Assembly: GCA_963836175.1 (NCBI GenBank)
Contig: CAWIIS010000008.1
Coordinates: 76,387 to 140,386 of the forward strand
DNA length: 64,000 nucleotides
DNA from: Nitrospirota bacterium
GTDB lineage: Bacteria; Nitrospirota; UBA9217
Direction: 5' to 3'
The notes beneath the pieces were generated by a model, which was not told the DNA's origin, did not search any database, and worked only from the letters and a program-made list of their open reading frames with translations. Each line of letters begins with the position of its first letter. Positions within the stretch are counted from its first letter, which is position 1. The position numbers and the translations under genes are program-made. Of the stretch, positions 21,118 through 63,311 are shown one piece after another.

Positions 21118-21197
21118 ATGCAAAGTGCAAAATGCAAAATTTAAATTGCAAAATGCCCTTACTTTGCACTTCGCGCTTTGCACTTTGCATTTTGCAA
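21118..21197. repeat. Inverted heptamer tandem array (NTGCAAA)x5 - 10 nt - (TTTGCAN)x5
   Basis: Read directly between trxB and moeA. Confidence 0.9.
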
Positions 21198-21223
21198 TCG
21201 ACGTCAGGGACGGTGTTTTACCC

Positions 21224-22504
21224 ATGACCCTCAAGGACATGCTCGGCCGATCCGGCGTGGTATCCCGGGAAGACGCGTTCAGGGCGCTCGAGCTGCATCT
21301 GACCATTGCTCCCCCCGCACCGGAAGAACTTTTCATCAGCCTGTCCCTCGGCAGGATCGTTGCTGAAGACATCGCGTCGCCTGAAGACCTCCCTGAGTTC
21401 GACCGTTCCACCATGGACGGGTTCGCGGTGCGGAGCATTGACACCTTTGGCGCGGCCGAGTCGCGGCCCGCGCTGGTGACGATCGTGGGCGATATCGCCA
21501 TGGGCGCCATGCCCGGCCGCGCACTGTCCGCGGGCGAAGCCATGAAGATCGCGACCGGCGGCGCGCTCCCGAAAGGAGCTGATGCCGTGGTCATGCTCGA
21601 ACAGACCCAGGCTGTAGACGCGGCACAGATCGAAGTGGTGAAGCCCGTAGCACCGGTCGAAAACGTGGTCCAGGCAGGCGACGATATCAAAAAGGGCGAG
21701 ATCATCCTGGGCCGCGGCCACCGGATGCGGCCGCAGGACGCGGGCGCACTTGCAGGCGTCGGCATTACCCGGGTATGCGTTTTCAAGAAACCCCGGGTAG
21801 CGATCATCAACACCGGCAATGAAGTTGTTCCCGCCGATACCGCACCCGCTCCCGGCCAGGTGCGCGATATCAATTCCTACAACCTTGAAGGCCTTATCGC
21901 GCAAGCAGGCGGCATGCCGGTCAAGAGAGGCATTATCCCGGACGACTATGGCCGGTTGCGCGAAGCGCTCGAAGCCGCCCTCGGGGATTGCGATCTTGTC
22001 CTGATGACCGGCGGCAGTTCCGTGGGCACCATGGACCTGACCGCGAAGGTGATCAATGATCTGGGCAGGCCCGGCGTGCTGGTGCACGGCGTTTCCATCA
22101 AGCCGGGCAAGCCGCTCATTATGGGTGTGCTCGCGATACCAGCAAGGCAGGTACCGGTGTTCGGCCTGCCGGGACATCCTGCCGCGGTCAGCATCTGTTT
22201 TGAACTGTTTGTTAAACCGGTCCTTGAGCGCATGACCGGAGAAGTGCCTCATCCCGCGCTTGCGGGTGTCTTGGCATATCGCAGCGTGAAAGCGAAACTG
22301 GCCAGGAGCATTTCTTCCTCACCGGGGCGCGAGGACCATGTGCGGGTCACGCTTGAAAAGAAGGACGACGGCCTCTGGGCCAGACCTGTGTTCGGCGCAT
22401 CAGGGCTGATCAGCACGCTGGTAAAAGCCGTGGGCACGGTCGTGGTGCCGGTCAATAAGATCGGGATCGAGGTCGGCGAGGAAGTGGAAGTAAGGCTGTT
22501 CTGA
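21224..22504 (+). CDS. moeA: Molybdopterin molybdotransferase MoeA (gephyrin-like)
   Basis: PEFDRSTMDGFAV, IATGGALP.GADAVVM.E, TGNEV, TGGSSVG, KPGKP, GLPGHP. Confidence 0.93.
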   Translation: MTLKDMLGRSGVVSREDAFRALELHLTIAPPAPEELFISLSLGRIVAEDIASPEDLPEFDRSTMDGFAVRSIDTFGAAESRPALVTIVGDIAMGAMPGRALSAGEAMKIATGGALPKGADAVVMLEQTQAVDAAQIEVVKPVAPVENVVQAGDDIKKGEIILGRGHRMRPQDAGALAGVGITRVCVFKKPRVAIINTGNEVVPADTAPAPGQVRDINSYNLEGLIAQAGGMPVKRGIIPDDYGRLREALEAALGDCDLVLMTGGSSVGTMDLTAKVINDLGRPGVLVHGVSIKPGKPLIMGVLAIPARQVPVFGLPGHPAAVSICFELFVKPVLERMTGEVPHPALAGVLAYRSVKAKLARSISSSPGREDHVRVTLEKKDDGLWARPVFGASGLISTLVKAVGTVVVPVNKIGIEVGEEVEVRLF

Positions 22505-22603
22505 GTAACTCGGTCCGCAAAACATTTACGTTCCCAAGGTGAGCCTGATCGACGAAGAACTCTTGCGGAACTGCTGATCGTTAGGACTGGTAGTGACTTT
22601 GAC

Positions 22604-24887
22604 ATGGTAAAAGACCGGGTAACGAAGGATCAACAAAAGACGGCTCAGGAACAGATTCCTGAAGCCGCAAGCAAGGAATTACCTCTTGATTCGCGTCTAT
22701 TGTCTGACGCCGTCATCGAACTGAATATTTCCCGCAAGAATGTCGGCATCTATCCTCCCGGCCACATCCAGATTTCAAAAAGCATTACTCGCTCCTATGA
22801 AGCGATGCTTAAACTGTTCGAGGTGCGTGCGGAGATGACGCTCGGCATTGCCAAGGACACGCTGTTCGTGGGGCAGGACTACCTGGACCGCGCCAATCCC
22901 GTGTACCGGGACTTCGCGCTTTCCCTGTACAACCAGGGAATCGCAGCGGTGACCTTCAAAAGGGGTATGGACCGGGACGAATTGGTTCGGCTTCACCGGA
23001 TAATTACCACGAGACCGGAAGAGATCAAGTCCCGGGGCGGCATTGCCGAGGTCGTTGACGAATCCGATATCCCCCACATTCGCATCACTCCCATAAACTA
23101 TGCAGGTTTTCATGTCACGGAAGAGCAGGAGATCTGCTCGAGACCGCGTTGTCAAACCCGAGACAGAAGAAGGTGTCGGCTTGTGGGGGGAATTCGTTTC
23201 TCATCTTTCCGCGGGGACGATTGCCTTTGCCGGCAAGGACCAGGGGGTCTCTCTCAAGGATGCGGAACAGGTGGATCCGGCAGAACTGGCCAGACTCCTG
23301 AACGAGCGCAAACTCGATCCGCATGTGGTGCTGCAGAGCTATGACAAGGTCATTTCAAGCCATGTGCGGGTCCGGGCCGAACAGAAACAGCTGAGCCGGT
23401 CGCAATCGAACACGCTCCGGAGCCTGAACAACCTAATGAAAGACCTGCACCCCGATCTCAGGAAGCAGTTCCTGGCAGTGACCTTCGAACGAACGGCGGA
23501 AGCGTCGCCAGCGGTGACCGAGGAAATCATGGGCGGCATGACTGACGACATGGTCATCGACATGCTCCAGCAAGCCAGTTTCCAGGGAAGAGAAATATCG
23601 CCGACACTCACCGGGTTGCTCCAAAAGCTCGCCAGTGCCAGTGATGTTGCAGCGAGTGCAGAAAGCGGCGGAAAAGCATCGGGCGGAACTCCGGCTGCAG
23701 CGCTCTCGCAGGAACAGGTGCAGGCGCTGTTCAAACGGGAAAATTACGAACAGTTTGTATCCACCGAGTATGCGGAAACGCTTGGTAAACTGTCGCAACG
23801 TCAGCCGGGCCAGATGGCGGCGGCCGCAGGCACATTCCCGATCGAAGAGTATATCGCCACGATGACGGAGGAACGGCTCGATTACCAGATCGGCCGGGTC
23901 CTGCTCGGTTTTATCGATGAAGACATTTCGGACGACGACTACGGCGAGTTTCTGAAGAAAGTGGTTTCGAATCTGCCCGAACTGGTCCGCTCCGAGCAAT
24001 TCGCGATGCTTCACGACACCTTTGAAACGCTCCGCCTGCACAGCAGGGAAAAGAAGTCCATGACGATCCGGTCCATGGTTGATATCGCGCTCCGGGGTTT
24101 TCGGGACCCGGCATTCATAGGATCTGTCGTAGATGCATGGGGCCTCTGCACCAGCAAGGAGAAGATGCGTGCTGCAACGAACTTCCTTCTTTCTCTCGGC
24201 CCTGATGCGCTTCCGCCGCTCCTTGATCTGTACTCACAGGGCGAGACTGCCGGGGGAAAGCGCTCCGTATTCGACCTCCTCTGCAGGTTCGGCAACACAG
24301 CGGCGCAGGAGGCGGTGAAGCGTCTTACTGATAAACGGCCCTTGTATGTTCGCAATCTGCTGATGCTTATCCGATGGGGATGGGATAATTCCGTAGTCCC
24401 CGCAATACGGCCGTTGGTCCAGCACAAAGACCGGATGGTCAGGCTGGAGGCGATCACCGCGTTGCTTCGGTTTCGCGATGCCTCGGCGATTCCCGCGCTG
24501 CGCACGCTGATACAGGACAACGATCCTGATGTGGCCGCCCTGGCCGTGGCGCTGGCGGGCCAGTTTCGCGTGCGGGCGGCCGTTGATCTGATCCTCGGCA
24601 AGCTCAAAAAGGTCATTCTCTTCGAGAGCGACTACGGATACAACGAGGAGATCATTCTGGCGCTGGGCGAGATCGGCGATCCCCGGTCAATACCGGAACT
24701 GGAGCGGATCGCAACAGGGGGGTGGCCGCTTTTTCCCAAACGCCGCAACCGCATGAAAGCGATGCTCTTCGAATCCCTGGGACGCTATCCACGGCAAAGC
24801 ATCAGTGGCCTGATTTCCATCGGCATGCAATCGGGCGATCCGCGCATTCTTCGTGCCTGCGCCAAACTGGGAGCAGAGAAACCGTGA
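22604..24887 (+). CDS. Large HEAT-repeat protein; frameshift near 23140
   Basis: ORFs 22604..23344 and 23100..24887 join; C-terminal HEAT repeats D.RPLYVRN, H.D.MVRLEAI.AL, ALGEIGDPRSIPEL. Confidence 0.75.
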
Positions 24888-26462: not shown

Positions 26463-28411
26463 ATGGCATTCAAACAAAAAAAATATCTCGACAATATGCC
26501 GCTCGCCGAGGCGATCGCGAAATACGATGCTGCGCTGAAAAAAGCGAATATCGGCAGACCGCTCGCGGGTGAGCCGGTTCCGGTCGGCGATGCGCTGGGG
26601 CGCGTTACGTCGGAAGCGGTGATCGCGAAGATATCATCGCCTTTCTATCATTCCGCGGCCATGGACGGCTATGCGGTCAGGTTCATCGACACCTTCGGCG
26701 CAGGCGAGACGAGGCCGAAACGGCTCGCTGTCCCGGCGCAGGCGGTGGCCGTCGATACCGGCGACCCCATGCCCGACGGGTACGATGCCGTGATCATGAT
26801 CGAGGACGTGGAGAAGATGTCCGGATCCGAGATCGAGATCCTGAAGCCGGCCACGCCGTGGCAGCATGTGCGGCTCGTGGGCGAGGACATCGTCGCCACG
26901 GAGCTCATCATCTCCGAGAACCATGACGGTCCGGCCGGTGGACATGGCGGCCATGATCGCGAGCGGCCACACCACGGTCATGGTGCGCCGAAGGCCCGTC
27001 GATCTCCGATCATTCCCACCGGGACCGAACTGGTGGAGCCGGGCAGCGAGCTCAAAAAGGGCGATATCATCGATTTCAACTCGACCATGCTTGCGGCCAT
27101 GGCAACGGAGTGCGGCGCGCATGCTGTCCGCAAGGAACATCGTAAAGGATGACGCGGCTCTTCTCAAACAGACCATCCTCGACGCTCTCTGCGGAATCCG
27201 ACCTCGTGGTGATCAACGCGGGCTCTTCCGCAGGCAGGGAGGATTTTACCGCCGATGTGATTGCGGAGCTCGGCGAGGTCCTGGTGCACGGCGTCGCCAT
27301 CAAGCCCGGCAAGCCGGTGATCCTCGCCATCGTGCAGGGCAAGCCGGTCATCGGCATCCCGGGGTATCCGGTCTCTGCGGCGCTCACGTTCAATCTCTTT
27401 GTGAAGCCGCTGATCTACGCGTTGCTGGGGCTGGCGTCACCCGCTCCGGAACGATCAGCGGCGAAATTCAGCCGGCAGGTGGCATCATCGCTCGGCGCGG
27501 AGGAGTTCATCCGCGTGAAGCTCGGGAGCGTGTCGGGCAAACTGATCGCCACGCCCGTGACCCGGGGCGCGGGCGCGCTCATGTCGCTGGTCCGCGCCGA
27601 CGGCATCATCCGCGTTCCGGCGGAAAGCGAGGGCATCGCGCGCCGGGCACGATGTGACGGTGGAGCTTTTGCGGTCGCCCCGCGATATCAGGAACACCAT
27701 CGTCTGCATCGGCTCCCATGACAATGCCCTCGATGTGCTCGGCGAACTTTCTCAAGAAGAAACATCCCGAACTTTCCCTTTCATCCGCCCACGTGGGAAG
27801 CATGGGCGGGCTTCTTGCGCTCAAGCGCGGCGAGGCGCATTGCGCAGGGACCCATCTGCTCGATGAGGAGACGGGCGAGTACAATGTGAGCTACATCAAG
27901 AAACTGCTTCCGGACAAAAAGGTCGTGCTCGTGAACCTGGTGTACCGGACCCAGGGCTTCATCGTGCCGAAGGGCAACCCAAAGGGCATCAAGGGATTTG
28001 AGGACCTGGTGCGTCCGAAGACGTGGTGTTCGTGAACCGCCAGGCCGGAGCGGGCACGCGGCTCTTGACGGACCTGTACCTGAAACGATTAGGAATTGAC
28101 CCGAACAGTGTAAAAGGGTATCATCACGAGGAATTTACGCACATGGCGGTGGCCGCGGCCGTGCTTTCCGGCGCCGCCGACACCGGGCTTGGCGGTGCTT
28201 TCGGCGGCCCAGGCGCTTGATCTCGATTTCGTGCCCGTGGCGCAGGAACGGTACGACCTGGCGATCCTGGAGCGAGTATTACGATACGACCCATGCTCCA
28301 GGCGCTGCTCGGGATCATTCGCGAGGACGGCGCCTTCCGCGACCAGATCATGAAGCATGGGCGGCTATGACGTGTCGCGAGATGGGGAACGTGATCGCCA
28401 ACGCTGAATGA
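26463..28411 (+). CDS. moeA: MoeA fused to a C-terminal LysR/PBP-type substrate-binding domain; multiple frameshifts
   Basis: SAAMDGYAV, VDTGDPMP, GSSAGREDFT, KPGKP, GSHD, VGSMGGLLALKRGEAH.AG.HLLD, FVNRQ.G.GTR. Confidence 0.88.
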
Positions 28412-28470
28412 TTCAGGATTCAAGATGGTTCAGTACTATGCATTTTGAAGCTTGCAATTTTGAATTTTAT
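28411..28470. repeat. Degenerate inverted heptamer array of the ATTCAAG/TTTGAAT type
   Basis: ATTCAGG ATTCAAG ... TTTTGAA GCTTGCA ATTTTGA ATTTTAT. Confidence 0.55.
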
Positions 28471-28486
28471 ATTAACGGAGGTACTA

Positions 28487-31697: not shown

Positions 31698-31715
31698 ACA
31701 CAAGTACGTGTTCAG

Positions 31716-31781
31716 ATCCAAGATTCAAGACTCAAGATTCAAGATTTAAAAATATTGAATATTTCTTATTGAATTTTGAAT
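31716..31781. repeat. Inverted heptamer array (ATTCAAG)x5 ... (TTGAAT)n
   Basis: ATCCAAG ATTCAAG ACTCAAG ATTCAAG ATTTAAA ... ATTGAAT TTTGAAT. Confidence 0.8.
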
Positions 31782-36215: not shown

Positions 36216-36662
36216 ATGCCGCATTTCGGGTTAATGAACGAGAAGGAGTTGGGGCCGGTCGCCGGTCCGTTGCAGCGGGCAAGGCTTCATCTGCGGGGCG
36301 GAAAACGAAGACTGCGCCAGGGAAAGATCTCGGCGGGCATTGTCACGCTGTACGACGCGTTGGAAGGCGCGATGCTTTCCTACGCCGAATCGCCTGAGAC
36401 AGGGCCGCGGCTGCAGTTCCGGCCTGGAGAGCGCATGCATGACAGCAAGGCGTTGTACGCAGTGCTTGTCCGGTCCGGAGTGCTTGACGGCTCCTTCGAC
36501 TTCGAGGCTTTTGACCGGTTGACGGAGCAAGCGCTCAAGCAGGAACTCGTTGGCTACGATACGCGGGACCTGCTCGCGGGCATTGAATCGGTCATGACGC
36601 AACTCGGGGTCCTGCCCTTTGACGAAGCAAGCCTGCCGCCGGAGGACCCGAAGACCTTCTAA
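36216..36662 (+). CDS. Conserved hypothetical helical protein
   Basis: GGAGG RBS, intact 148-aa ORF, MPHFGLM..RARLH.RGGKRRL. Confidence 0.65.
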   Translation: MPHFGLMNEKELGPVAGPLQRARLHLRGGKRRLRQGKISAGIVTLYDALEGAMLSYAESPETGPRLQFRPGERMHDSKALYAVLVRSGVLDGSFDFEAFDRLTEQALKQELVGYDTRDLLAGIESVMTQLGVLPFDEASLPPEDPKTF

Positions 36663-36695
36663 TTTCTGGATTGCGGATTTCGGATTGCGGATTGA
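36663..36695. repeat. One-sided heptamer array of the TTGCGGA/TTTCGGA type
   Basis: TTTCTGGA TTGCGGA TTTCGGA TTGCGGA TTG. Confidence 0.75.
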
Positions 36696-45793: not shown

Positions 45794-45812
45794 TCAGATA
45801 AGATAAGTCCTC

Positions 45813-52154: not shown

Positions 52155-52159
52155 TAGAG

Positions 52160-53055: not shown

Positions 53056-53139
53056 AAAATGCAACGACCGCTGAATGGCCAGAGAGGCCGGAAAGACTCT
53101 TGTCAGAGAAAGCCCGGAAGGAATGCATCCGGAGGTTTT

Positions 53140-53889
53140 GTGAGCAGGGCGCGGGATTACTTCCCAGCCGTTCACGGGGTCGTTGCACTGCTGCTTATTT
53201 TATTGTCGCCGCTTGCAGCCGGTGCGGAGGAGGGGCGTTCCTATCTCGAAATGAGCGGCGGGTATAAGACGGGAGATTTCGGCACGCCGACGAGGTCGGA
53301 ACTGTACTACGTCTCACCGACGCTTGGCTACGTGGCGCCGCGATATGATTTGAGTATAGCTGCTCCTTATCTGTTTCTGGCAAACAAGACAGATATCGAG
53401 ACAACATCTGAGAGCGGTATCGGCGATGTCATCCTGCGGGGCGGCAGGGTGTTTGTGCCCGAAGGTGACGGCGGTTTTTCACTCGATGGAGCACTGGCAG
53501 TGAAGCTGCCGACCGCCGACGAGAAAAAGGGGCTGGGCACGGGTGAGACGGATTACGGAGCATTTTTAAGTGTGCATCAACGCTTTGATAAAACCAGGCT
53601 GTCTTTGCTTTCGGGGTACATAAAAGTCGGCGATTCTCCGTCGGTGAACTATAACGACATTTACCTTTATGGCTTTGGAATAGCGCGTGTCTTCGGCAAC
53701 ACCGAAGTGTATGCCGCGTACGAAGGCAGGCGGGCAATGGTTCCCGGCTTCAAAAATCCGCAAGAGATCAATGTCGGATTTTTTCATGTTCTGAACCAGG
53801 ACTACGCGATTAAAGGCGGCGCTTTTTCCGGCCTGAACAACGGCAGCCCTGATTTCGGCATGAATTTCGGAGTCGTAAGATGGTTTTAG
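53140..53889 (+). CDS. Outer-membrane beta-barrel protein (start uncertain)
   Basis: Signal peptide, SGIGDV, VKLPTAD..KGLGTGETDY, C-terminal aromatic residue (RWF). Confidence 0.7.
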   Translation: MSRARDYFPAVHGVVALLLILLSPLAAGAEEGRSYLEMSGGYKTGDFGTPTRSELYYVSPTLGYVAPRYDLSIAAPYLFLANKTDIETTSESGIGDVILRGGRVFVPEGDGGFSLDGALAVKLPTADEKKGLGTGETDYGAFLSVHQRFDKTRLSLLSGYIKVGDSPSVNYNDIYLYGFGIARVFGNTEVYAAYEGRRAMVPGFKNPQEINVGFFHVLNQDYAIKGGAFSGLNNGSPDFGMNFGVVRWF

Positions 53890-54063
53890 ATTAACTTCAT
53901 CATCACCATCCTGCCGGAACTGCTCAAAACCGTTCTGTATTCTGTTGTATGAAATACTACACTTCTTTGAGCAGACGCTTCAAACTTGAATTACTCTCCC
54001 TCGGATTTCACCTCTATTCTTCTGATTTTATTATATAATCTAAACATTATCTATTCGTGCTTT

Positions 54064-54080
54064 TTGGCGCACGCCTTGCT
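54064..54080 (+). promoter_or_regulatory. sigma54 (-24/-12) promoter of cusCBA
   Basis: TTGGCGCACGCCTTGCT: GG-N10-GC with a TTGC -12 element; AT-rich upstream tract. Confidence 0.65.
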
Positions 54081-54104
54081 ATAGTATTAGACAGGAGGCA
54101 CGCA

Positions 54105-55353
54105 ATGCGGAACCTGGTATATGTATTTATTTTTTTGATAGTTTTCCTGCCCATAAACGCTCCATCCCAGGAGGTCGGTGTTACACTCAAGGACCTGGAG
54201 CAGGAGGCGCTGAATAATAATCCCGAGATCGGCATGGCCGGGAAAAAAGCCGAGGCTGCCGAAGAACGGAAGTCGCTCGCTTCCGCCATGCCGGACCCCA
54301 TGGTAGGCGTCATGATCCAGAATGTCGGCGCTCTCGGCATCTCGACCGTGGGCAAGGAAGAAATGAGCATGCAGGGTGTGGTGTTCACGCAGGAGATCCC
54401 GTTCCCTGGCAAGCTTTCCACCAAGGGCAGGGCTGCCGCAAAAATGGCGGGGCGTGAGCAGGAAAATTCCCGGGAGACCAGGCTCAGGGTGCTGAACAAT
54501 TTGAGGACCGCTTACTATGAGTACTTCCTGGCGTACCGGTCCGCGGAGATCCTGAATGAGACCAAGGAACTCATGAAAAACTTTCAACGCATCGCCGAGA
54601 CCCGCTATGCGACCGGGCAGGGCATGCAGCAGGACGTGCTCAGGGCGCAGCTCGAGGTTTCCATGCTTCTCGACAAGATCGCCGAAGAGGACCGGAAAAA
54701 AGAGACCCAGGCCGCGCATGATCAACAGTCTTATCGGCCGGAACCCGCTGGCGCCCCTGGGAAAGCCCGCAGAACCGCCCCGCCGTGCACTGACCAAAAG
54801 CCTGGATGAAATGGCTGCCCGGGCCCAGGCCCATTCACCGATGCTCAAGGGCAAGCAGCAGATGGTCGAGCAGGGCGAGGCGGAGCTGTCGATGAGCCGC
54901 AGGGAATATCTGCCCGACATGGTGGTGTCCGCCGGTATGTTCACGCGGGGAGATTATAAAGATGTCTGGCAGGCAAGCCTGATGCTCAAAGTCCCGCTCT
55001 ATTTCTGGAACAAGGCCACGGGCGTCAAAGCCGCGAACGCCGACCTGCATGCGGCACGGTACGAGTATGAGGCGGAGAAACTTGCGACCCTGGCCCGCAT
55101 GCGCGACCTCTACGCCATGGTGAACACCGCGGAGCACCACCTCCACTTGTACGAATCCGGGATCATTCCCCAGGCACGGCTGGCGCTCCAGTCCGCCTCG
55201 TCGAACTACCAGGTGGGAAAGACCGATTTTCTATCGCTGCTTGAGTCGGAGAACATGCTGCTCAAATACCAGCTCATGGAACAGGAGGAGCTGGTGAACC
55301 TAAGCAAGGCCCAGTCCATGCTCGGGGAGATCACGGGGGAAGAACATGAGTAG
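54105..55353 (+). CDS. TolC-family outer-membrane factor of a heavy-metal RND system (CusC-like); frameshift near 54715
   Basis: ALNNNPEI, PDP, QEIPFPGKL, YATGQG.QQDVLRAQ.E, YQVGK.DFL.LL. Confidence 0.85.
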
Positions 55354-55355
55354 GA

Positions 55356-55390
55356 ATTTCGGATTGCGGATTTCGGATTTCGGATTGAGG
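55356..55390. repeat. Heptamer array (ATTKCGG)x4 plus ATTGAGG
   Basis: ATTTCGG ATTGCGG ATTTCGG ATTTCGG ATTGAGG; the last unit overlaps the GAGGAG RBS. Confidence 0.85.
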
Positions 55391-55396
55391 AGCGTA

Positions 55397-56503
55397 ATGC
55401 GGGTAATTATGATTGCTCTCTGCGTATGTCTGTATAGTTTGCCGGGTTTTTCCCAGGATCATGCCGGGCATCAGCAGGGCCAGGGTGCGGGTGAAAAAAA
55501 ACAAACGGAAAAAACGCCTGTCATCACGCTCACGCCCGACAAGGTGCAGCTCATCGGTGTGCGCACCGCGGTTGCCGCGTACCGCTCGCTGGACAAGCAG
55601 ATCCGCACGGTCGGCAAGGTGGAGGTCGATGAGACCAGGCTCGCTTTTGTGAACACAAAGGTCTCGGGATGGGTAAAAAAACTGTACGTGAATTTCACCG
55701 GCGACCGGGTCGAGAAAGGCCAGCCGCTGCTTTCGATCTACAGTCCCGACCTCGTGACCGCCCAGGAAGAGTATCTCCTGGCGCTGCGGTCCCGGTCGAC
55801 CGGCACGGGCGACCTTCCGGAAGTGGAAGCGTCGCAGCAATCATTGATCGAATCAGCGAAGCGGCGGCTGCTCTTGTGGGACATCTCGCCCCGGCAGATC
55901 GAGGAGCTCGAAAAGGCCGACAGGCGACAGACCGAAATGACCATCGAGGCGCCGCTGAGCGGCATTGTGCTCGAAAAAATGGTGCTCGACGGCGCCTACG
56001 TCACTTCCGGCATGAACCTGTACAAGATCGCGGATCTGTCCCGGGTCTGGATCATCGCCGATATCTATGAATACGAGGTCCCCCTGGTGAAGCTCGGGCA
56101 GAAGGCGCGGGTGACCCTGCCGTACTCCCCGAACGAAGCATTGCACGCCGAGGTGAGCTATATTTACCCGGTGCTCGATCCCATGACGAGAACAGTCAAG
56201 GTGCGCATCGCGGTGAACAATCCCGGACTGGTCCTCAAGCCGGACATGTTCACCAACGTGGAGATCAGGGTCGCCTCGGGGTCGCGGCTCGTCATTCCCC
56301 GGGAAGCGGTGATCGATTCCGGAACCCGCCAGATCGTGTATGTGGAGACAAAGCCCGGCACGTACGAGATGCGCGCCGTGACGCTCGGCGTGCGCGGTGA
56401 GAATGACGTCGAGGTGGTCAAAGGCATCAAGAAGGGCGAACGCGTCGTGACGTCCGGCAATTTCCTGATCGACTCCGAAAGCCAGCTGAGGAGCGGACAA
56501 TGA
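55397..56503 (+). CDS. cusB: Heavy-metal RND periplasmic adaptor (CusB-like); alternative start 55346
   Basis: GWVKKLY, IYSPDL..AQEEYL, IADLS.VW, TRTVKVR, LKPDMF, GNFLIDSES.L. Confidence 0.9.
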   Translation: MRVIMIALCVCLYSLPGFSQDHAGHQQGQGAGEKKQTEKTPVITLTPDKVQLIGVRTAVAAYRSLDKQIRTVGKVEVDETRLAFVNTKVSGWVKKLYVNFTGDRVEKGQPLLSIYSPDLVTAQEEYLLALRSRSTGTGDLPEVEASQQSLIESAKRRLLLWDISPRQIEELEKADRRQTEMTIEAPLSGIVLEKMVLDGAYVTSGMNLYKIADLSRVWIIADIYEYEVPLVKLGQKARVTLPYSPNEALHAEVSYIYPVLDPMTRTVKVRIAVNNPGLVLKPDMFTNVEIRVASGSRLVIPREAVIDSGTRQIVYVETKPGTYEMRAVTLGVRGENDVEVVKGIKKGERVVTSGNFLIDSESQLRSGQ

Positions 56504-56508
56504 GTTCA

Positions 56509-56631
56509 ATTGCGGATTTCGGATTGCGGATTGCGGAATGAAAATCTTCGGAGGCAGAAATATGCAAACGAATGGGTCTCTCTATTTGTTTTTTGGGGTT
56601 AATCCGCAATTCGCAATCCGCAATCCGCAAT
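56509..56631. repeat. Inverted heptamer array (ATTGCGG)x4 - about 65 nt - (TCCGCAA)x4
   Basis: Read directly between cusB and cusA. Confidence 0.9.
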
Positions 56632-56641
56632 GGTACATACC

Positions 56642-59600
56642 ATGTTAGCGAAGATCATCGAGCTGTCTGCCCGAAACAAATTCCTCGTCTTTCTCGTTGT
56701 GGGTTTCCTGACCGCCTGGGGCGTCTGGGCCGTGTACCAGACGCCGCTCGACGCGATACCCGATCTTTCGGACGCCCAGGTGATCGTCTTCACCGAGTGG
56801 GCAGGCAGGAGCCCGGACCTGGTCGAGGACCAGATCACCTACCCCATCGTGTCGTCCATGCTCTCGGCGCCCAAGGTGCGCGTGGTGCGCGGCAAGTCCT
56901 TCCTCGGCCTGTCTTTCGTGTATGTGATCTTCGAGGACGGCACCGACATCTACTGGGCGCGGAGCCGGGTCCTTGAATATCTCCAGGGCGTGACCGGCAG
57001 GCTTCCCGCAGGGCGTGACGCCCGTGCTCGGCCCTGATGCCACCGGCGTCGGCTGGGGTTTTCAGTACGCGGTCACGGACGAGACCGGCAAACACGACCT
57101 TGCCCAGCTCCGTTCGCTCCAGGACTGGACGCTCAAGTACGCCATCGAATCCGTGCCGGGCGTGTCCCAGGTCGCGAGCGTGGGCGGTTTCGTGAAGCAG
57201 TACCAGATCACCGTCGACCCGAACCGGCTGTTCGCCTACAAGCTCTCGCTGATGAAGGTCATGGAAGCGGTCCGGAGGAGCAACCGGGACGTCGAGGGCA
57301 GGGTGGTGGAATGGTCCGGCCGGGAGTATATGGTGCGCGGCCGCGGCTACATCAAGGACAAGGCAGACATTGAAAAGATCGCCGTCGGCACCGACGGCAA
57401 GGGCACGCCGATCCTGCTGCGGGACATCGCGGCGGTACAGCTCGGCCCCGAGATCAGGCGCGGCGCCGCCGATCTGGACGGCAAGGGAGAGGCCGTGGGC
57501 GGCATCGTCGTCGTCCGGTTCGGCGAGAACGTGCTGTCGGTCATCGACCGCGTCAAAGCCAGGATCAAGGAGATCGAACCTTCGCTGCCGGAAGGGGTGA
57601 AGATCGTCACGACCTACGACCGGTCGGAGCTGATCCACCGGTCCGTGGACACGCTGAAGGAAGAGATCATCAAGCTCGGCCTGGCAGTGAGCGTGGTCTG
57701 CATCGTCTTCCTGTTCCATCTGCCGAGCGCCTTTGTCGTTATCCTGACCTTGCCGATCGCCATCCTCATCTCCTTTATCTGCATGTACTATCTGGGGATC
57801 AGCTCGAACATCATGAGCCTCTCCGGCATTGCCATCGCCATCGGCGCCATGGTCGACGCCTCGATCATCATGGTCGAGAACGCGCACAAAAAGCTGGAGG
57901 ACTGGGAAGCAGGCGGGCAGCGTCCACGGCTCCCGCGTGGACGTGATCATCCAGGCCGCGCAGGAAGTCGGGCCGTCGCTCTTTTTCTCGCTCCTGGTGA
58001 TCACCGTCGGGTTCCTGCCGGTCTTTACGCTCGAGGACCAGGCGGGACGGCTGTTCAAACCGCTTGCCTATACCAAGACGTTCTCCATGCTGTTCGCGAG
58101 CTTTCTCGCGATCACGCTCACGCCGGTACTCATGACCCTGTTCATCAAGGGAAAGATCAGGCACGAGGACAAAAACCCGATCAGCCATTTCCTGGCCAGG
58201 ATCTATCACCCGGTGGCGGAGTTCTCGCTCCGGTTCCGAAAGACCGTGATCATCATTGCCCTCGTGATCGTGCTGGTCACGATCTTTCCGTTCCTGCAGC
58301 TGGGATCGGAGTTCATGCCGCCCTTGTACGAAGGCACGCTTCTGTTCATGCCCACGGCGGTGCCCGGCGCATCGATCACGACCATGTCCGGCATCCTGCA
58401 GGCCCAGAACCGGATCATGAAGCAGTTCCCCGAGGTGGAGCAGGTTTTCGGCAAGGCCGGCCGCGCGGAAACGCCGACGGACCCGGCTCCGCTCGAGATG
58501 ATCGAGACCAATGTGACGCTCAAGCCCATGAACGAATGGCGTCCCCAGTTCAGGAAGTTCGAAGACCTGCGCGACGAACTCGATGCGGCGATCGCGATCC
58601 CCGGGGTGGGCAACAACTGGACCATGCCGATCATCGGCAGGATCGATATGCTGTCAACGGGCATCAGGACCCCGCTGGGCCTCAAGATCTTCGGCCCGAA
58701 GCTCGATGAGATAGAACGCATCGGACTGGACGTGGAAAAGACCCTGCGCGAGGTGCCCGGCACGCGCGCGGTCTATGCCGAACGGGCGAATACGGGATAT
58801 TTTCTCGATTTCACGATCAACCGCGACGAGATCAGCCCGCTACGATCTCACGGATCGAGGATGTGCAGGAAGTGATCCAATCGGCCATCGGCGGCATGAA
58901 CCTGACAACCACGGTGGAAGGGCGGGAGCGCTATCCCGTGAACGTCCGGTACGGCCGTGAACTGCGCGACGATGTGGAGAAGCTCAAGCGGGTGCTGGTC
59001 CCGGTGATGGACGGGGCCCAGGTGCCGCTGGGCCAGCTGGCCGATATCCGGGTCACGCGCGGACCGGGCATGGTGCAGAGCGAAGGCGGCAGGCTTACGG
59101 CCGCGGTGACGCTGAACATCGACGGAAGCGATTTCGGCGGCTATGTGGAAAAGGCGCGGAAGGCGATCGCGGAAAAAATAAAGATACCCGCGGGATATTC
59201 CCTGCTCTGGTCAGGCCAGTACGAGTACATGGAGAGCGTGAAGACCAAGCTCTTCTATGTCATCCCGCTGACGCTGTTCATCATCATCGTGCTGATCTAC
59301 CTCAATACCGCATCGTGGACCAAGACCGCAATCGTGCTTCTGGCGGTGCCGTTCTCGCTGGTCGGAACGGTCTGGTTTCTCTATATCCTTGGTTATCACA
59401 TGAGCACGGCTGTCTGGGTCGGCGTGATCGCCCTGGCCGGGCTCGATGCCGAGACCGGCATCGTGATGCTGCTCTATCTCGACCTGTCGTACAATCAATG
59501 GCACAAGGACGGCAGGATCAACTCGCTGCGCGATATTGAGGATTCCGTCATGGAAGGGGCGGTGAAACGCATCCGGCCGAAGATCATGACCGTGTCGGTG

Positions 59601-59783
59601 ATCCTGGCCGGACTGGTGCCGATCATGCTGTCGACCGGCACCGGCGCCGACGTGATGAAGCGCATTGCCGCACCCATGGTCGGCGGGGTCATAACCTCGA
59701 CCATCCTGGAGCTCATCATCTATCCGGCGATCTACGTGATCTGGAAGGAACGTGCCTTGGAAAAAGGCACGCGTTCGGAGTAG
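56642..59783 (+). CDS. cusA: CusA/CzcA-family heavy-metal RND permease; frameshifts near 57010, 57925 and 58840
   Basis: LDAIPDLSD.QVI, GPDATGVGW, GAMVDA.I.MVEN, GSEFMPPL.EG, DPAPLEM.ET, W.MPI..RIDML.TG, R.RPK.MT, MKRIAAPMVGG. Confidence 0.93.
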
Positions 59784-59863
59784 GGAGTGCGTAGTTAGGA
59801 GTAATGAGTTCGGAGTGAGGAGTTAAACGTAAAACTACGAACTCCCAACTCCAAACTCCAAAC
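59773..59863. repeat. Inverted heptamer array (GTNNGGA)x7 ... (TCCAAAC)x4 between convergent genes; likely bidirectional terminator
   Basis: GTTCGGA GTAGGGA GTGCGTA GTTAGGA GTAATGA GTTCGGA GTGAGGA ... TACGAAC TCCCAAC TCCAAAC TCCAAAC. Confidence 0.85.
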
Positions 59864-60555
59864 TATTTTTGGGAAGGGTTCATCGCGGCATCGTAACGTT
59901 TCAGGTAGTCGCTGACCAGGCGCTCGGGTTCATACCCGAGCGCTTTTGCGTAGAGGACCAGGAAACCGCGGAGGTAGGGCCGGGCGGGGAGCTTGCTGAA
60001 ATTCTCCGCTTCAATGAACTCGACATAGCGCGAGCCGAGTTTCGTCATATCGGCGAGGTTGCGGACGGTAATGTTGCGCTGTTCCCGCAGGTCCCTGAGG
60101 ACCGGGCCGGTTAATTCCGTGACCGTTGAAGGAAGCGGCTGGGGCGTCGGCATCACTACGGCAGGCATCGGCGTCGGCAGAGGCTCCCGTATCGGCTCGG
60201 CGCTCTTGAGATGGCGGATGTCCGCTTCAAGGGACAGGGACGGCTGCCGGGGCTGGGCCTGATAGGGTTTTTCCGCCGGTTGCAGCGCGGCAGGCGCAGG
60301 CGGCCCGCTGCTCTGGCGGAGCAGTGCGTCGTAGCGCTTACGGGTCTCTTCGTAGACCAGCGTACGGTAAGCCTCTTCGATGCGCCGGTTGATCGAGGCT
60401 GTTTCGTCCGCCGAGAAGAGGGAATAGAGCGCGATGGAGTTCGGTTCATAGATCTTGCGTATCCGGTCGTAGGCCCGGTGGATATCCTGCGACGAGGCGT
60501 CCGTGTTGATCTCAAGGAGTTCGTAGTAGTTCAGGTCCTCTATTTTCTTGATCAT
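59863..60555 (-). CDS. Degenerate J-like domain plus Pro-rich linker plus RodZ-type (XRE) HTH protein
   Basis: NYYELLEI..DAS..DI.RAY with YEPN in place of YHPD; LRDLREQRNI..IEAENF..LP..YLRGFL..YAKALG. Confidence 0.8.
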   Translation of the reverse strand: MIKKIEDLNYYELLEINTDASSQDIHRAYDRIRKIYEPNSIALYSLFSADETASINRRIEEAYRTLVYEETRKRYDALLRQSSGPPAPAALQPAEKPYQAQPRQPSLSLEADIRHLKSAEPIREPLPTPMPAVVMPTPQPLPSTVTELTGPVLRDLREQRNITVRNLADMTKLGSRYVEFIEAENFSKLPARPYLRGFLVLYAKALGYEPERLVSDYLKRYDAAMNPSQK

Positions 60556-60571
60556 GAAAGCTCCCGTAAAT

Positions 60572-60600
60572 AATCAAATCACAGACACCAAATCACAAAT
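60572..60600. repeat. One-sided heptamer array of the TCACAAA type
   Basis: AATCAAA TCACAGA CACCAAA TCACAAA. Confidence 0.55.
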
Positions 60601-60612
60601 AAATTTACCCTT

Positions 60613-61557
60613 TCAATAGAGCATGCTGGCGGTAAGCTGTTCTTTCCTGAGCACATTATGGACGATCCGTTCGATGCAGCGCGCCGGCCGCGAGTAGGGA
60701 TATTCGATCGCCAGCGGCCGCTTGCTCCGGATGGACTGCCAGACGCAGTCATCGTACTCGACATAGCCCAGATATTCAAGGCTGATGCCGAAGTACTTCT
60801 GACAGGCGCTCTTCATTGAAAAACCGATCTGGATGTCGTTCTTGGTCCGCACCTGGTTCACGACGAGCTTGGGCCTGAACTTCATCATCTCGAGCTCCAG
60901 GGTCTCGCCGCTTTCCGGCTCCAGCTGCTTGATGCGTTCGATCAGGTCGTAGGGAGTGCGGATCCCCATGTTGTTCTTCTGGTCCATGGCCGCATCGATC
61001 AGGTCCTTGATGTTCTGCCCGGTCACGATCCGCTTGAACCGGCGGTAAAAGGCGCTCTTGATGAACCGGTAGGCGTTCTCAATGGCGGTAGGTTCCGGCA
61101 GCACCACGAGAATGCCGTGGTCGGCGAACAGGAAAAAATCGAGGATGTTGAAGGACGTTCCGGCGCCGAGGTCGAGGATAATGTAGTCGGCATCAAGGGT
61201 TTCGAGGTGCCGCAGCAGGCGGGTTTTTTGCGCGAAGTTGGGGTTGGCCGCATCGAGGAAGTCCTGGGCGCCGCTCACCAGGCTCAGGTTCGGGATGCTG
61301 GTCTTGATGATAACGTCCTGGATGGTCTCGACGCGGCGGTTCAGAAAATCGGAAAGCGTCATCTCCGGCACGCCGATGCCGAGCGTCGTGTGCAGGTTCG
61401 CTCCGCCGAGATCGGCGTCCACGAGCAGGACCCGCTTCTTCAGGCGGGCGAGGGTGATGCCGATATTGCCGGTGATCAGGCTTTTACCGATGCCGCCCTT
61501 GCCGCCGCCGACTGCCCAGATCTCTTTTTTGCGCAGGGCGTCCTGGATCTCTTTCAT
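60613..61557 (-). CDS. MinD/FlhG-like P-loop ATPase
   Basis: GGGKGGIGKS deviant Walker A, VDADLGGANLH, ILDLGAG, PEPTAIENAYRF. Confidence 0.88.
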   Translation of the reverse strand: MKEIQDALRKKEIWAVGGGKGGIGKSLITGNIGITLARLKKRVLLVDADLGGANLHTTLGIGVPEMTLSDFLNRRVETIQDVIIKTSIPNLSLVSGAQDFLDAANPNFAQKTRLLRHLETLDADYIILDLGAGTSFNILDFFLFADHGILVVLPEPTAIENAYRFIKSAFYRRFKRIVTGQNIKDLIDAAMDQKNNMGIRTPYDLIERIKQLEPESGETLELEMMKFRPKLVVNQVRTKNDIQIGFSMKSACQKYFGISLEYLGYVEYDDCVWQSIRSKRPLAIEYPYSRPARCIERIVHNVLRKEQLTASMLY

Positions 61558-62247
61558 TAAGCCTGACTCTCCCCGGTGGCCGCGGTTTTCGTTGTATCTG
61601 CTGAAGGGGACTCCTCCTCCGGGGCCAGGTCCGCATACGCGGCCTCTTCCTCGAGGATCTCCGCCTCACTGGCCGGTGCTGCTGCGCGGTACTTCTTCCA
61701 TGGCATCCTCGCCCGCTTCAAGCTCCTGGAACTCCTTGAGCGTCGGCAGGGACGAGAGGTCCTTTAACCCGAAATACTGCAGAAAGTCCTGGGTCGTGCC
61801 GTACATCATGGGTTTGCCCGGCACATCCTTCTTCCCCACGATCTTGACGAGCCTGCGCTCCATCAGGTTCCGCATGATGCCGCCGATGTTGACGCCGCGG
61901 ACCGCTTCCACCTCGGTGCGCGTGATGGGCTGCTTGTATGCCACGATGGCCAGCGTTTCGAGCGCCGGCTTCGACAGTCTGGTCGAGACCTTGACGGTCT
62001 TGAACTTCCTGATCCAGCCGAAGTGCTCCGGCCGCGTCGCGAGCTGGTATCCGCCCGCCACCTCGGCAAGCATGATGCCGGCGCCCCGGTCGTCGTATTC
62101 CTGCCTGAGCAAGGCGAGCTGCAGGTCGATCTGTTCGGCAGACGCCTCATCGAAGATGCCCTTCAGCTTGTCCATGGACAAGGGGTTGCCCGAGACGAAG
62201 AGCAGCGCCTCAAGCGCCGATTTTAATTGTTGATCTTCCAATTTCAC
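61557..62247 (-). CDS. scpB: SMC-ScpAB subunit ScpB; acidic tail shifted by an indel near 61670
   Basis: LEALLF, VAGGYQL.T, LSKPALETLAIVAYKQPITR, YGTT..FL.YFGL..L..LP; the tail ends in a TAATG overlap with the next gene. Confidence 0.93.
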
Positions 62248-62304
62248 TACCTCTAAAAATTATAAGTGTTGAGTCCTTGAAATGCAAAAAAAGAACATGA
62301 GCTC

Positions 62305-62394
62305 TGCCACGAAGGCACGAAGACAGCTTAAGACCTGGTCAATGAGATCGTAAAGTTCTACCGTCTTTCTTCGAGCCTTCGTGTCTTCGTGGCA
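62305..62394. repeat. Inverted octamer array TGC(CACGAAGR)x2 ... (YCTTCGWG)x3 GCA
   Basis: TGCCACGAAGGCACGAAGAC ... TCTTCGAG CCTTCGTG TCTTCGTG GCA. Confidence 0.8.
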
Positions 62395-62421
62395 AAAGAT
62401 TCTGTTTGTCCGGGTCAAGAG

Positions 62422-63270
62422 CTACATCGCCATCGGGTCGCCCAGCCTGCCGAGTGCAACCTTGGCGTTCATCTTCACATCCATGTCCGTTGCGGTTTCC
62501 AGGATCTTCCGGATCTTCGGGACCGCGTCCTTCACGAACTCCGGGTTGGAGCTGCCGATGTTCCCGATGGCGGCGACCGCGTTCTTGACCGCGTTGGGAT
62601 GGCCGCTGTCCAGGTAGGCCATGAGCTTCGGCACCAGGCTTGCCACTTCCTTGGGATAATGGAGCCCGATGGCGCCCAGGGCGAAGAGCACGCCGCCGCA
62701 GGTTGCCTCTTTGGAGAACTCAAGCACTTCCACGAGCTTCGGTAGGATGCCGCGGATCAGCTCCGGCGCGTTGATGCCGACCTTGCCCAGGGCATGGGAC
62801 GCCGCTTCGCGCTCGTCGTCGTCGCCGGTTTCGAGCATCCGGATCAGCCGCGGGACCGCGTCGCGGACGAGGTCCGTGTGGGCGAAGCCGATGTTGCCGA
62901 GGGCGTAGGCCCCCTCCTGGCGCACGAGGCTCTGCTCATGTTCGAGGAGCGCCTTGAGCTTCGGCGCTGCCGCTGTTGCCGCTTCCTTGAAATTAAAACC
63001 CAGGTTACCGACCGCATTGGCCGCATCGATCTTGACGAACATGTCCGGGTCGTCCAGGAGCGCGATCAGGACCGGCAGATGACGCCGCGTGTCGTTGGGG
63101 TAATCAAAACCCACGCGCGACAACAGGTTCAATACGCCCGAGCGCACGTCGCCGTTCTTCTCGCCGAGCAGGGTCACCAGGTCGCCGATGAGCGAGCGGT
63201 CCGCGTAAATCGCCGTCTCGATCTCGCCGAATTTTTTTGCAAAGGCCAGTGCTTTGATGTCAGGTTTCAT
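62422..63270 (-). CDS. HEAT-repeat protein (282 aa, about 6 repeats)
   Basis: Repeated P.L..LL...D..VR..A..ALG.IG units. Confidence 0.85.
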   Translation of the reverse strand: MKPDIKALAFAKKFGEIETAIYADRSLIGDLVTLLGEKNGDVRSGVLNLLSRVGFDYPNDTRRHLPVLIALLDDPDMFVKIDAANAVGNLGFNFKEAATAAAPKLKALLEHEQSLVRQEGAYALGNIGFAHTDLVRDAVPRLIRMLETGDDDEREAASHALGKVGINAPELIRGILPKLVEVLEFSKEATCGGVLFALGAIGLHYPKEVASLVPKLMAYLDSGHPNAVKNAVAAIGNIGSSNPEFVKDAVPKIRKILETATDMDVKMNAKVALGRLGDPMAM

Positions 63271-63284
63271 AAGTTAAGTAAAAG

Positions 63285-63311
63285 GGTCCAGGGACCAGGT
63301 TCAGGGTCCAG
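63285..63311. repeat. Short heptamer array of the GGTCCAG type
   Basis: GGTCCAG GGACCAG GTTCAG GGTCCAG. Confidence 0.55.

Follow-up and report, generated by a model that had tools for sequence, protein, structure and literature searches.

The 64,000-nt stretch analysed here (the window; positions 76,387 to 140,386 of contig CAWIIS010000008.1, Nitrospirota bacterium, assembly GCA_963836175.1) carries short intergenic tandem arrays, nearly all with a period of 7 nt. We read these arrays, with a probability of about 0.6, as the paired or solitary arms of gene-less hairpin elements of the intervening-sequence (IVS) type, situated outside rRNA, where they follow the stop codons of protein genes. 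The arrays are genuine, depart from chance and show polarity. They have a common anatomy and arms of fixed length, lie with a defined polarity behind stop codons, are associated with small genes whose family goes with the period, co-occur with these genes across genomes, turn over among close relatives and are spread across phyla. Most copies in this genome (G000) lack an open reading frame (ORF) and are either empty hairpins with stems of 24–31 bp or a stop-proximal G-rich arm alone. An initial annotation of the window had interpreted the arrays as footprints of a repeat-generating or mobilising system whose protein is encoded elsewhere; this is partly supported, in that the arrays are associated and co-occur with small genes, whose proteins would be candidates for generating or mobilising them.

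The G000 assembly comprises 3.63 Mb in 9 contigs, is 72% complete and contains frameshifts. It was compared with five congeners (G001–G005). Arrays in the window were called with Tandem Repeats Finder (TRF) and by reading the sequence, and host genes were assigned with Pfam. Genome-wide gene calls came from a crude predictor of our own that covers ~70% of the genome (64–73% in its first versions) and serve as a rough guide only; adjacency to stop codons was verified straight on the sequences.

Array arms enclose two families of small genes

G000 contains two matches to TIGR02436/PF05635, the four-helix-bundle "23S rRNA intervening-sequence protein" (PF05635 at 5.6e-31), and four loci of the GxxExxY family (TIGR04256/PF13366). 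Both four-helix-bundle genes lie between inverted heptamer arrays, one with ATTKCGG arms and the other with GAGTTCG arms, and at least three of the four GxxExxY genes lie between inverted arrays of 9–10-mers. We extended this comparison to 28 four-helix-bundle loci in 19 related genomes (G000 among them), 22 loci of this gene family in genomes of five other phyla that were reached through named records, and 30 GxxExxY loci, running TRF on 230–260 nt on each side of the gene and on control flanks 700 nt further out.

Four-helix-bundle genes, related genomes: 28 loci; array on at least one side at 26, on both sides at 19; period 7 in 31 arrays, period 8 in 6; arrays in 5/56 control flanks.
Four-helix-bundle genes, other phyla: 22 loci; array on at least one side at 22, on both sides at 16; period 7 in 20 arrays, period 8 in 10; arrays in 0/44 control flanks.
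GxxExxY genes: 30 loci; array on at least one side at 24, on both sides at 15; period 8 in 15 arrays, period 9 in 14, period 10 in 8, period 7 in none; arrays in 6/60 control flanks.

Flanking arrays thus accompany 48/50 four-helix-bundle loci from six phyla and 24/30 GxxExxY loci, compared with 11/160 control flanks, which confirms the link between arrays and both gene families that the initial annotation had put forward. The period separates the two families: 51 of the 83 arrays flanking four-helix-bundle genes have period 7, compared with none of the 39 flanking GxxExxY genes (Fisher p = 1e-12).

In the orientation of its gene, the cassette starts behind a host stop codon with a G-rich arm of ~4.5 heptamers, continues with a purine-rich spacer of ~25 nt that contains a ribosome-binding site, then with the ORF for a four-helix bundle of 110–140 codons (PF05635/TIGR02436), and ends with a C-rich arm; the host gene that follows has its ribosome-binding site and start there. 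A parallel cassette holds a GxxExxY ORF (PD-(D/E)XK) between arms of 8–10-nt units. The two arms of a locus belong together: the left arm scored against its own right arm with a median of 30, against 14 for mismatched loci, and the own pair was the best in its row at 18 of 27 loci. Proteins that are 70–90% identical share arm families. An origin of the unit sequence from the local target site was rejected, because related cassettes share arms at different host loci. L016 and L019 (70% identity) have GAGTTCG arms in common, and L006 and L008 (72% identity) GGTGAAG 8-mer arms, in each case at unrelated host loci.

The closest solved relative of the G000 four-helix-bundle protein is XCC0516 (2gsc, E = 1.7e-14); this entry and that of a second solved relative, 2rld, each contain five chains.

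The most frequent units in G000 match the arms of its resident genes. ATTGCGG-type units make up 199 of 325 intergenic heptamer arrays, TCGCAAAGG accounts for 35 of 81 9-mer arrays and CGCGAATGAA for 27 of 66 10-mer arrays. Within the window, the arrays enclose no PF05635 ORF and their loops span 4–63 nt, so that the window holds ORF-less relatives of IVS-type elements and not full members.

A few loci have cassettes or arms within or next to other reading frames. Outside the window, a GAGTTCG/CTCCGAA hairpin array (G000:C4:54946-55012) is embedded in the ORF of a histidine kinase, where it is flanked by the N box and the DxGxG box of the ATPase domain and is read in frame (…VRSTELGV…SSEL…); the kinase homologue of G012 (L016, G012:C134) carries a complete four-helix-bundle cassette at the matching position, which splits the ORF. 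In a Chloroflexota genome (L320, G034:C7:61300-62650), a four-helix-bundle cassette with GGGAGTA/CTCCC arms is apparently located within an ORF whose downstream part resembles an N6-methylase motif region (…DPAAGSGHFL…). At L301 (G000:C7:84525-85160), a GxxExxY gene with 10-mer arms has an empty hairpin with matching arms and a similar loop ~80 nt away, and no stop interrupts the frame of the gene, which crosses the arm and enters the following lipoprotein-like ORF.

Arrays and four-helix-bundle genes co-occur across genomes and phyla

Matches to three units of AWTKCGG number 90–304 in the six genomes of the genus, 0–72 in the rest of the family and 0–2 in other families of the phylum, while the reversed pattern, used as a control, gave 0 throughout except for 1+1 in G030. 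For a count independent of the unit, all heptamer arrays were recorded in 28–126 kb from each of 22 related genomes. Eight genomes without a four-helix-bundle match had a single heptamer array in 546 kb, and eleven genomes with at least four matches had 66 in 823 kb. The four-helix-bundle gene is present in 11/11 array-positive genomes compared with 3/11 array-negative ones; G017, which has a GxxExxY but no four-helix-bundle gene, showed no heptamer array in its sample.

The association extends to other phyla. Among 101 Planctomycetota genomes, 11 contain three units of AWTKCGG and 47 the gene, which is found in 11/11 carriers compared with 36/90 others (hypergeometric p = 2.4e-4 excluding the seed genome). 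Five genomes from five phyla that were picked through the array all have the four-helix-bundle gene. At least 124 stretches of named genome records carry ATTKCGG x3.4, for which we estimate a chance expectation of ~0.03. Judged by record titles among the 80 loci listed, the carriers include Nitrospirota, Acidobacteriota, Planctomycetota, Verrucomicrobiota, Chloroflexota, Bacteroidota, Desulfobacterota, Gemmatimonadota, Myxococcota, Bacillota (Heliobacteriaceae), Saccharibacteria and others. Among the matches listed, 68 of 92 have the 31-nt form of 4.4 copies, in at least a dozen phyla.

REP elements and REPINs are abundant intergenic hairpin repeats in operons, strand-oriented, often arranged as inverted pairs, and flank their cognate RAYT gene. 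The window arrays could be elements of this kind, moved by a Y1 (RAYT/IS200-type) transposase. Eight Y1_Tnp (PF01797) matches are present in G000, mostly in ORFs of ~220–320 codons, and the family occurs in 24/31 related genomes, including every sampled array-positive one (11/11). It tracks the arrays less sharply than the four-helix-bundle gene does, since it is also found in 6/11 sampled array-free genomes, and it was not found in G001 despite 186 pattern matches there. Moreover, the G000 Y1-like genes are flanked by motifs of their own (TAGGGTCAGGTC-type and others) and not by ATTKCGG or other heptamer arrays. A REP or REPIN unit is one palindrome associated with a Y1 transposase, whereas the arms described here are tandem repeats, not a single imperfect palindrome, and go with a four-helix-bundle or PD-(D/E)XK gene. 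We therefore consider transposition by Y1 enzymes very improbable.

As a separate observation, the Y1-like matches in G000 lie at C3:487956, C8:280349, C8:880990, C8:1105727, C7:110342, C5:16116 and two further positions. Six of the ORFs have 258–322 codons and two are shorter (218 and 124 codons), and five of the longer ones share an N-terminus (…RPLRIEY…). Several are bracketed by their own TAGGGTCAGGTC / GACCTGACCC-type repeats, which looks like a separate REP/RAYT-like system.

Abundance and anatomy of arrays in the genome

Period 7 stands out among the tandem arrays of at least three copies in G000, with 370 arrays found by TRF compared with 56, 47, 65 and 27 for periods 6, 8, 9 and 10, respectively. 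Most of the period-7 arrays (305/370) are mostly outside gene calls. Concatenated real intergenic DNA yielded 316 period-7 arrays and an equal-length third-order Markov simulation (one run) none, which speaks against the possibility, raised in the initial annotation, that arrays are no more frequent than in shuffled intergenic DNA. Its statement that the unit sequence varies while the period is kept holds across the genome: we counted 78 canonical heptamers, dominated by ATTGCGG/ATTTCGG and near variants. Single-linkage clustering of the units at one mismatch was uninformative, as it merges nearly all of them.

We distinguished 310 heptamer elements, ~116 of them hairpins (59 paired TRF rows plus 57 local alignments above the 99th percentile of the null) and 194 single arms. 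Array length peaks at 30–32 nt (127/461 rows), and the ATTKCGG family has a median length of 31 nt (interquartile range 29–32). Exactly four units plus AWT make up 116 of 166 ATTKCGG-type regular-expression matches; an A-rich stretch comes next, and the stop codon is typically 3–7 nt upstream. In addition, 67 elements have no GG on either strand (for example AATGCAA and AGATTCA) and show the same architecture, 36 of them as hairpins.

Polarity is most evident in single arms. Of 142 such arms at co-directional junctions, 115 are G-rich when read in the sense direction (p = 1.5e-14). These G-rich arms start at a median of 5 nt past the stop codon (within 15 nt in 77/115), compared with a median of 72 nt for C-rich arms (within 15 nt in 3/27). 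Among all 227 elements in co-directional junctions, 158 are closer to the upstream stop and 69 to the downstream start (p = 3e-9), in agreement with the initial placement of the arrays just after stop codons. An apparent "G-arm first" order in hairpins was withdrawn as a gene-relative orientation, since the G arm of such a hairpin comes first whichever strand is read; the order means only that the arms converge, and follows from the polarity of single arms.

These features bear on an alternative in which the arrays are autonomous simple-sequence repeats: polymerase slippage would favour 7-nt units, the arrays would be kept because the G-rich strand, with its four GG tracts, or the hairpin forms a G-quadruplex or stem in the mRNA 3' region that stabilises or tunes the upstream cistron, and small genes would have lodged in existing hairpins. 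In its favour, published GGGNATC arrays of Xanthomonas and Nostoc follow matching rules of position (in the accessible text of PMC4692102), 103 of the 120 single arms that contain GG are G-rich in the sense direction, and point-variant units are mixed within arrays, as mutation and slippage would give. Against this, array length is sharply peaked at ~31 nt with no decay with copy number, and GG-less units share the architecture. Slippage also does not predict the split between period 7 and periods 8–10 by gene family, the absence of arrays from genomes without a four-helix-bundle gene, or the occurrence of one and the same 31-nt ATTKCGG element across a dozen phyla or more. We regard this alternative as unlikely.

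Arrays of the window

The initial count of at least ten junctions with period-7 arrays, one of them with period 8, was borne out by TRF and sequence reading. The TRF rows listed below from 21117 onwards have period 7, except for the period-8 row at 62368-62391; the left 8-mer arm near 62305, the imperfect single arm at 60572 and the decayed pair at ~15862-15947 were added by sequence reading.

15862..15947, plus strand: decayed pair in which GGATTGCGAAGGATTGTGAA remains of the G arm and AAATCCGAAATCGAATCGCAAT of the C arm (TRF row 15866-15885); now within the 3' end of a MerR-family ORF (15521-15946), immediately upstream of clpB (Pfam MerR_1, Clp_N).
21117..21196, plus strand: hairpin of AATGCAA x5.7 (21117-21156), a 4-nt gap and ACTTTGC x5.1 (21161-21196) (TRF); begins 9 nt past the TAG of a pyridine-nucleotide disulphide oxidoreductase gene, with moeA downstream (Pfam).
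28408..28472, plus strand: weak A/T-rich pair of an ATTCAGG/ATTCAAG-type arm and an ATTTTGA arm (TRF row 28442-28468); flanked by a PBP-like gene remnant and a small ORF.
31714..31781, plus strand: A/T-rich pair of AGATTCA x4.7 (31714-31746) and AATATTG x4.4 (31751-31781) (TRF); follows the stop of a PD40/Tol-type beta-propeller gene and precedes a response regulator (Pfam).
36662..36694, plus strand: single G-rich arm of the dominant ATTKCGG family (TRF); its start is the TAA of the upstream gene and its end is ~10 nt ahead of a DUF255 thioredoxin-like gene.
55356..55386, plus strand: single G-rich arm, ATTTCGG/ATTGCGG x4.4, 31 nt (TRF); starts 5 nt past the TAG of an outer-membrane efflux gene (Pfam), its final unit merging into the GAGGAG that precedes a membrane-fusion (HlyD/CusB-type) gene.
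56509..56631, plus strand: full hairpin of ATTGCGG x4.1 (56509-56537), a 63-nt spacer and AATCCGC x4.4 (56601-56631) (TRF); separates the membrane-fusion gene from an AcrB/CusA-type pump gene.
59773..59864, plus strand: hairpin between convergent genes (TRF); the pump gene has its TAG within the GGAGTNN arm (59773-59825); the AAACTCC arm (59832-59864) adjoins the stop of an opposite-strand DnaJ/HTH gene.
60572..60606, minus strand: single imperfect arm, TTTGTGA/TTTGGTG on the sense strand (sequence reading); between a ParA-like gene stop and the DnaJ/HTH gene start.
62305..62391, minus strand: 8-mer hairpin of a CACGAAGR arm (~62305-62325) and a TCTTCGTG arm (TRF 62368-62391) with a loop of ~45 nt; separates a HEAT-repeat gene from scpB.
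63283..63312, minus strand: array of AGGGTCC-type x4.4, partly self-complementary (TRF); between two minus-strand genes.

Every site is located between protein genes, with the exception of the decayed pair that overlaps the 3' end of the MerR-family ORF, and the host genes are ordinary ones by Pfam (oxidoreductase/moeA, Tol-type propeller/response regulator, three efflux-pump genes, scpB and the ParA-like gene).

Each site was folded as RNA and compared with 200 shuffles. Five sites, with stems from 24–31-nt arms, beat 200/200 shuffles: 21112-21200 (z -4.4, -28.1 kcal/mol), 56504-56634 (z -8.2, -61.7 kcal/mol), 59770-59866 (z -4.3, -34.5 kcal/mol), and, on the minus strand, 62296-62396 (z -4.7, -39 kcal/mol) and 63276-63318 (z -2.9). 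The sites at 36660, 55351 and 60560 are single arms, with no fold for 36662 and 60572. The description of the arrays as a forward arm plus a reverse-complement arm therefore applies clearly at five sites and weakly at two or three, and does not apply at three. A scan of the whole window against Rfam gave no match at gathering score. Intrinsic terminators were rejected as an explanation: a scan of 44001-64000 that covered loops of 3–8 nt only gave 25 terminator-like sites, all of them away from the arrays, and the sequence downstream of single arms is A-rich and not T-rich, which counts against a terminator reading.

Two further observations concern the host genes. The units of several arrays contain a stop codon themselves (CAGTAGA, CAGTAAA, GGAGTAG; L011, L014, L015, L030 and window position 59784); there, the stop of the host gene is the first unit, and three such units give a stop in all frames. 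In addition, clpB (15969-18573) and the AcrB/CusA-type pump gene (56630-59783) are each split into two or three overlapping frames, which are probably assembly indel errors and not pseudogenes.

Turnover of arrays among congeners

The initial annotation had proposed looking for presence/absence variation at orthologous junctions. Across the five congeners, whose flanking genes are 76–98% identical, junctions were found empty, half-filled, filled or replaced. Junction 21118 has an array in all five, with other units in four and the unit of the window in G004. At 28408, related ATTCAAG/TTGAAT arms are present in G003, G001 and G005; at 31714, G003 and G004 have unrelated non-repeat sequence. Junction 36662 has variant single arms in G004, G001, G005 and G002, and a 121-nt hairpin of another family in G003, while the arm at 55356 is kept with point variants in G003, G004 and G001. 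At 56509, G001 retains both arms around an unrelated spacer, and G003 and G004 keep the left arm and have a different 9-mer hairpin after it. Every readable congener has another unit at 59773 (GGAGT/CTCCGAA, ACCCTGA or CAGTAGA). Junction 60572, the one clean comparison of an empty with a filled site, covers the full range of states: it is empty (15 nt) in G005 and G002, has half an arm in the window and holds a full 151-nt hairpin in G003, with no evident target-site duplication among these states, whose boundaries are blurred by divergence. The 8-mer hairpin at 62305 is common to G003 (three units, compared with two here) and absent in G005, G004 being largely masked there. At 63285, an array is present in G004 and G005 and is replaced in G003 by a CACGAAG 8-mer hairpin of the type found at 62305.

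The junctions of the two resident four-helix-bundle cassettes turn over as well. The cassette termed 4HB#2 is present in G003, and G002 and G005 instead have 82–88 nt with other single arrays. The 4HB#1 junction measures 57 nt in G002, and in G004 it holds a 214-nt empty hairpin of 9–10-nt units. In G003 (C6 ~2014082-2014648, L316), it contains a frameshifted four-helix-bundle remnant, and in place of heptamers a long inverted repeat, GTCATTCTGAGCGGAGCGAAGAATCTCG with its complement, encloses the insert. Rather than a GIY-YIG gene, one candidate reading of this insert, its frames show four-helix-bundle remnants.

G003 also has a hairpin family with CAAAT-type heptamer-like arms at the junctions orthologous to 21118, 36663 and 60572 (L061, L063). 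The copies at 36663 and 60572 have the loop motif TTCAAACGTTTC in common, which is varied to GAACGTTTCGAA in the copy at 21118. With a fixed loop motif, some array hairpins behave like dispersed copies of one element.

A unit that changes at orthologous junctions while the period stays, together with 78 units in a single genome, is a misfit for a sequence-specific regulator, which argues against the arrays being binding sites of a host RNA-binding regulator (S1, cold-shock, CsrA-like or the pentameric four-helix-bundle protein) that sets translation or decay of the neighbouring genes. The arrays are also close to the upstream stop and not to the downstream start, and binding by the candidate proteins is putative. 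Such a role was proposed for TAACTGA arrays of Beggiatoaceae (in the accessible text of PMC4679880), and it would suit several features: the dominant unit gives GGA every 7 nt, arrays are found between cistrons within operons, the solved relatives have five chains per entry, the Xanthomonas protein being described as a homopentameric toroid in the accessible part of PMC4990558, and five contacts at 7-nt spacing would cover ~31–35 nt. On balance we find this explanation improbable.

Artefacts of a long-read metagenome bin would be a trivial explanation. The frameshifted clpB and AcrB-type genes show that the assembly has errors, and support for the arrays in this particular genome comes from the assembly, since the contigs from four metagenome runs derive from relatives only and none of the sequencing runs examined contained more than 18% of the window's words. 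Five further assemblies of the genus nevertheless have similar arrays at matching junctions, and such arrays also occur in named public records (at least 124 stretches) and in the contigs of the four runs, where depth spikes at arrays, including that at 55356, and where one contig bridges the 60572 site with 21 nt. Short-read contigs of relatives end at arrays, as real repeats should cause. An artefact is thus hardly credible.

Relation to intervening sequences and other heptamer repeats

The closest published relatives of these elements are rRNA intervening sequences and the heptamer arrays of Xanthomonas and Nostoc; the comparison with cyanobacterial STRR elements made in the initial annotation holds only loosely. 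In the accessible text of Warrier et al. (PMC4990558), the 23S IVS of Coxiella has a 28-bp stem within which RNase III cuts in vitro, and three tandem GACAGAT heptamers, whose copy number varies between strains, precede its S23p ORF. As far as that text goes, the cassettes described here have the same design as the Coxiella and Leptospira 23S IVS with an S23p ORF: a PF05635 ORF is situated in the loop of a terminal inverted-repeat stem, the arms of ~24–31 nt compare with the 28 bp of Coxiella, tandem heptamers in the 5' arm lie ahead of the ORF, and the ORF is prone to decay. Unlike rRNA IVS, which are inserted in helix 25 or 45 of 23S rRNA, the elements described here are found behind the stops of protein genes and occasionally inside ORFs, number hundreds per genome, most of them ORF-less, use dozens of unit sequences and have a parallel 8–10-nt set with a different gene family.

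Rehm et al. reported 186 GGGAATC arrays in Xanthomonas campestris with a preference for four units and no function found (PMC4692102, accessible parts). The arrays lie within 50 bp past the stop on the sense strand, 70 convergent pairs occur and the majority are transcribed. The arrays of Xanthomonas and Nostoc (GGGAATC, GGGGAYT, including an STRR1-type unit) share with ours the heptamer period, the intergenic location, a size of about four units, the sense placement after stops, frequent convergent inverted pairs, and variation in length and sequence between close relatives, to the extent that the available text describes them. They belong to one unit family with a GGG/GGGG tract, read there as a G-quadruplex former, whereas units here have GG at most and many have none; the dominant ATTGCGG and ATTTCGG carry GG only. 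In the parts of PMC4692102 available, no link to a four-helix-bundle gene is drawn, and the gene name is given only in the supplementary tables, where array 15 (GGGAATC x4) is placed 6 nt past the bccP stop and overlaps the start of XCC0516.

MacGregor (PMC4679880, accessible parts) described TAACTGA arrays of marine Beggiatoaceae, Cyanobacteria and Bacteroidetes, which are intergenic and have 2–6 copies. In both cases, one unit recurs across distant phyla, suggesting horizontal spread without a known vehicle. As described in that source, however, TAACTGA arrays are found just upstream of starts and are almost never inverted, whereas ours lie just downstream of stops and are often inverted.

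The elements also resemble MITEs in being short and non-coding, in having inverted ends, in their presence or absence in close relatives and in the occurrence of one type at different junctions; they differ in that no matching transposase is found and single arms outnumber paired ones. A literature search returned no paper linking heptamer arrays with rRNA intervening sequences or the four-helix-bundle gene, with most subscription journals being outside its coverage.

Favoured interpretation and points against it

In the interpretation that we favour, IVS-type elements outside rRNA would be transcribed together with their host operons, and paired arms would form long RNA stems of the kind cut by RNase III, by analogy with the homologous rRNA IVS (PMC4990558, accessible text). 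The co-option of arrays as RNA hairpins, put forward in the initial annotation, would likewise draw on the published excision of that IVS by RNase III. ORF-less copies may have arisen from cassettes with an ORF, either because the ORF was lost or because arms were copied, and slippage together with arm-to-arm correction could keep the arms repetitive and complementary.

Several points weigh against this interpretation. The three 23S rRNA genes of G000 (C1:2059-5058, C2:279871-282871 and C8:2070-5070; 3,000–3,001 nt, fitting the full model and located near contig ends) have neither an intervening sequence nor a heptamer array, so that the element is not an rRNA IVS in G000. With ~370 heptamer arrays and only two four-helix-bundle genes in the 72%-complete assembly, descent of all arrays from cassettes needs many ORF losses or independent copying of arms. 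Single arms, which are 194 of the 310 elements, cannot be RNase III substrates, and the A/T-rich pairs at 28404 and 31708 are at shuffle level in folding (z -0.6, 200 shuffles). Transcription and processing of the arrays, and any effect on the host, are what we infer from the sequence. As for polarity, the gene strand and the GC-skew strand mostly agree, and the discordant cases (13 following the gene and 6 the skew, not significant) do not separate transcription from replication.

Co-occurrence also has its exceptions. G006, G025 and G026 carry the four-helix-bundle gene and have no heptamer array in the 53–80 kb sampled. Conversely, G002 has 167 pattern matches and no four-helix-bundle match in an assembly of 490 contigs that break at arrays. 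Seven genomes were sampled on contigs already known to hold a match, with arrays within 400 nt masked. The statistics count related genomes, which are not independent, and part of the co-occurrence may stem from the overall burden of selfish elements in a genome.

Implications

Two apparently separate literatures may meet here: that on heptamers, which are over-represented among the simple repeats of bacteria and number hundreds in Xanthomonas, Nostoc and Beggiatoaceae, with no known function or origin, and that on rRNA IVS with an S23p ORF, whose origin and mobility are unexplained. Period, length, polarity and phyletic distribution are common to the gene-bearing element, its empty hairpins and its solo arms, which suggests that heptamer arrays and rRNA IVS may be one thing at different sites, and a second gene family shows a matching design with a different period. 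The question "why seven?" would then become a testable one about a single protein family, RNase III-type stems would be predicted to abound inside the operons of many environmental phyla, and there would be an explanation for one frequent reason why contigs of short-read metagenome bins break.

A more far-reaching proposal, which we put forward as speculative and which may well be wrong, is that a single class of selfish element has left the long-noted excess of 7-nt tandem repeats in many bacterial genomes as its footprint. The IVS protein, a pentameric four-helix bundle related to Avd of diversity-generating retroelements, would recognise and propagate a ~31-nt array of its own heptamer through five contacts spaced by 7 nt, seeding it behind stops and in rRNA helices, and GxxExxY nucleases would do likewise with 8–10-nt units. 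Arrays would then be specified by proteins and would not be products of slippage, and copies within ORFs, such as that in the histidine kinase, would be tolerated by in-frame translation or removal at the RNA level.

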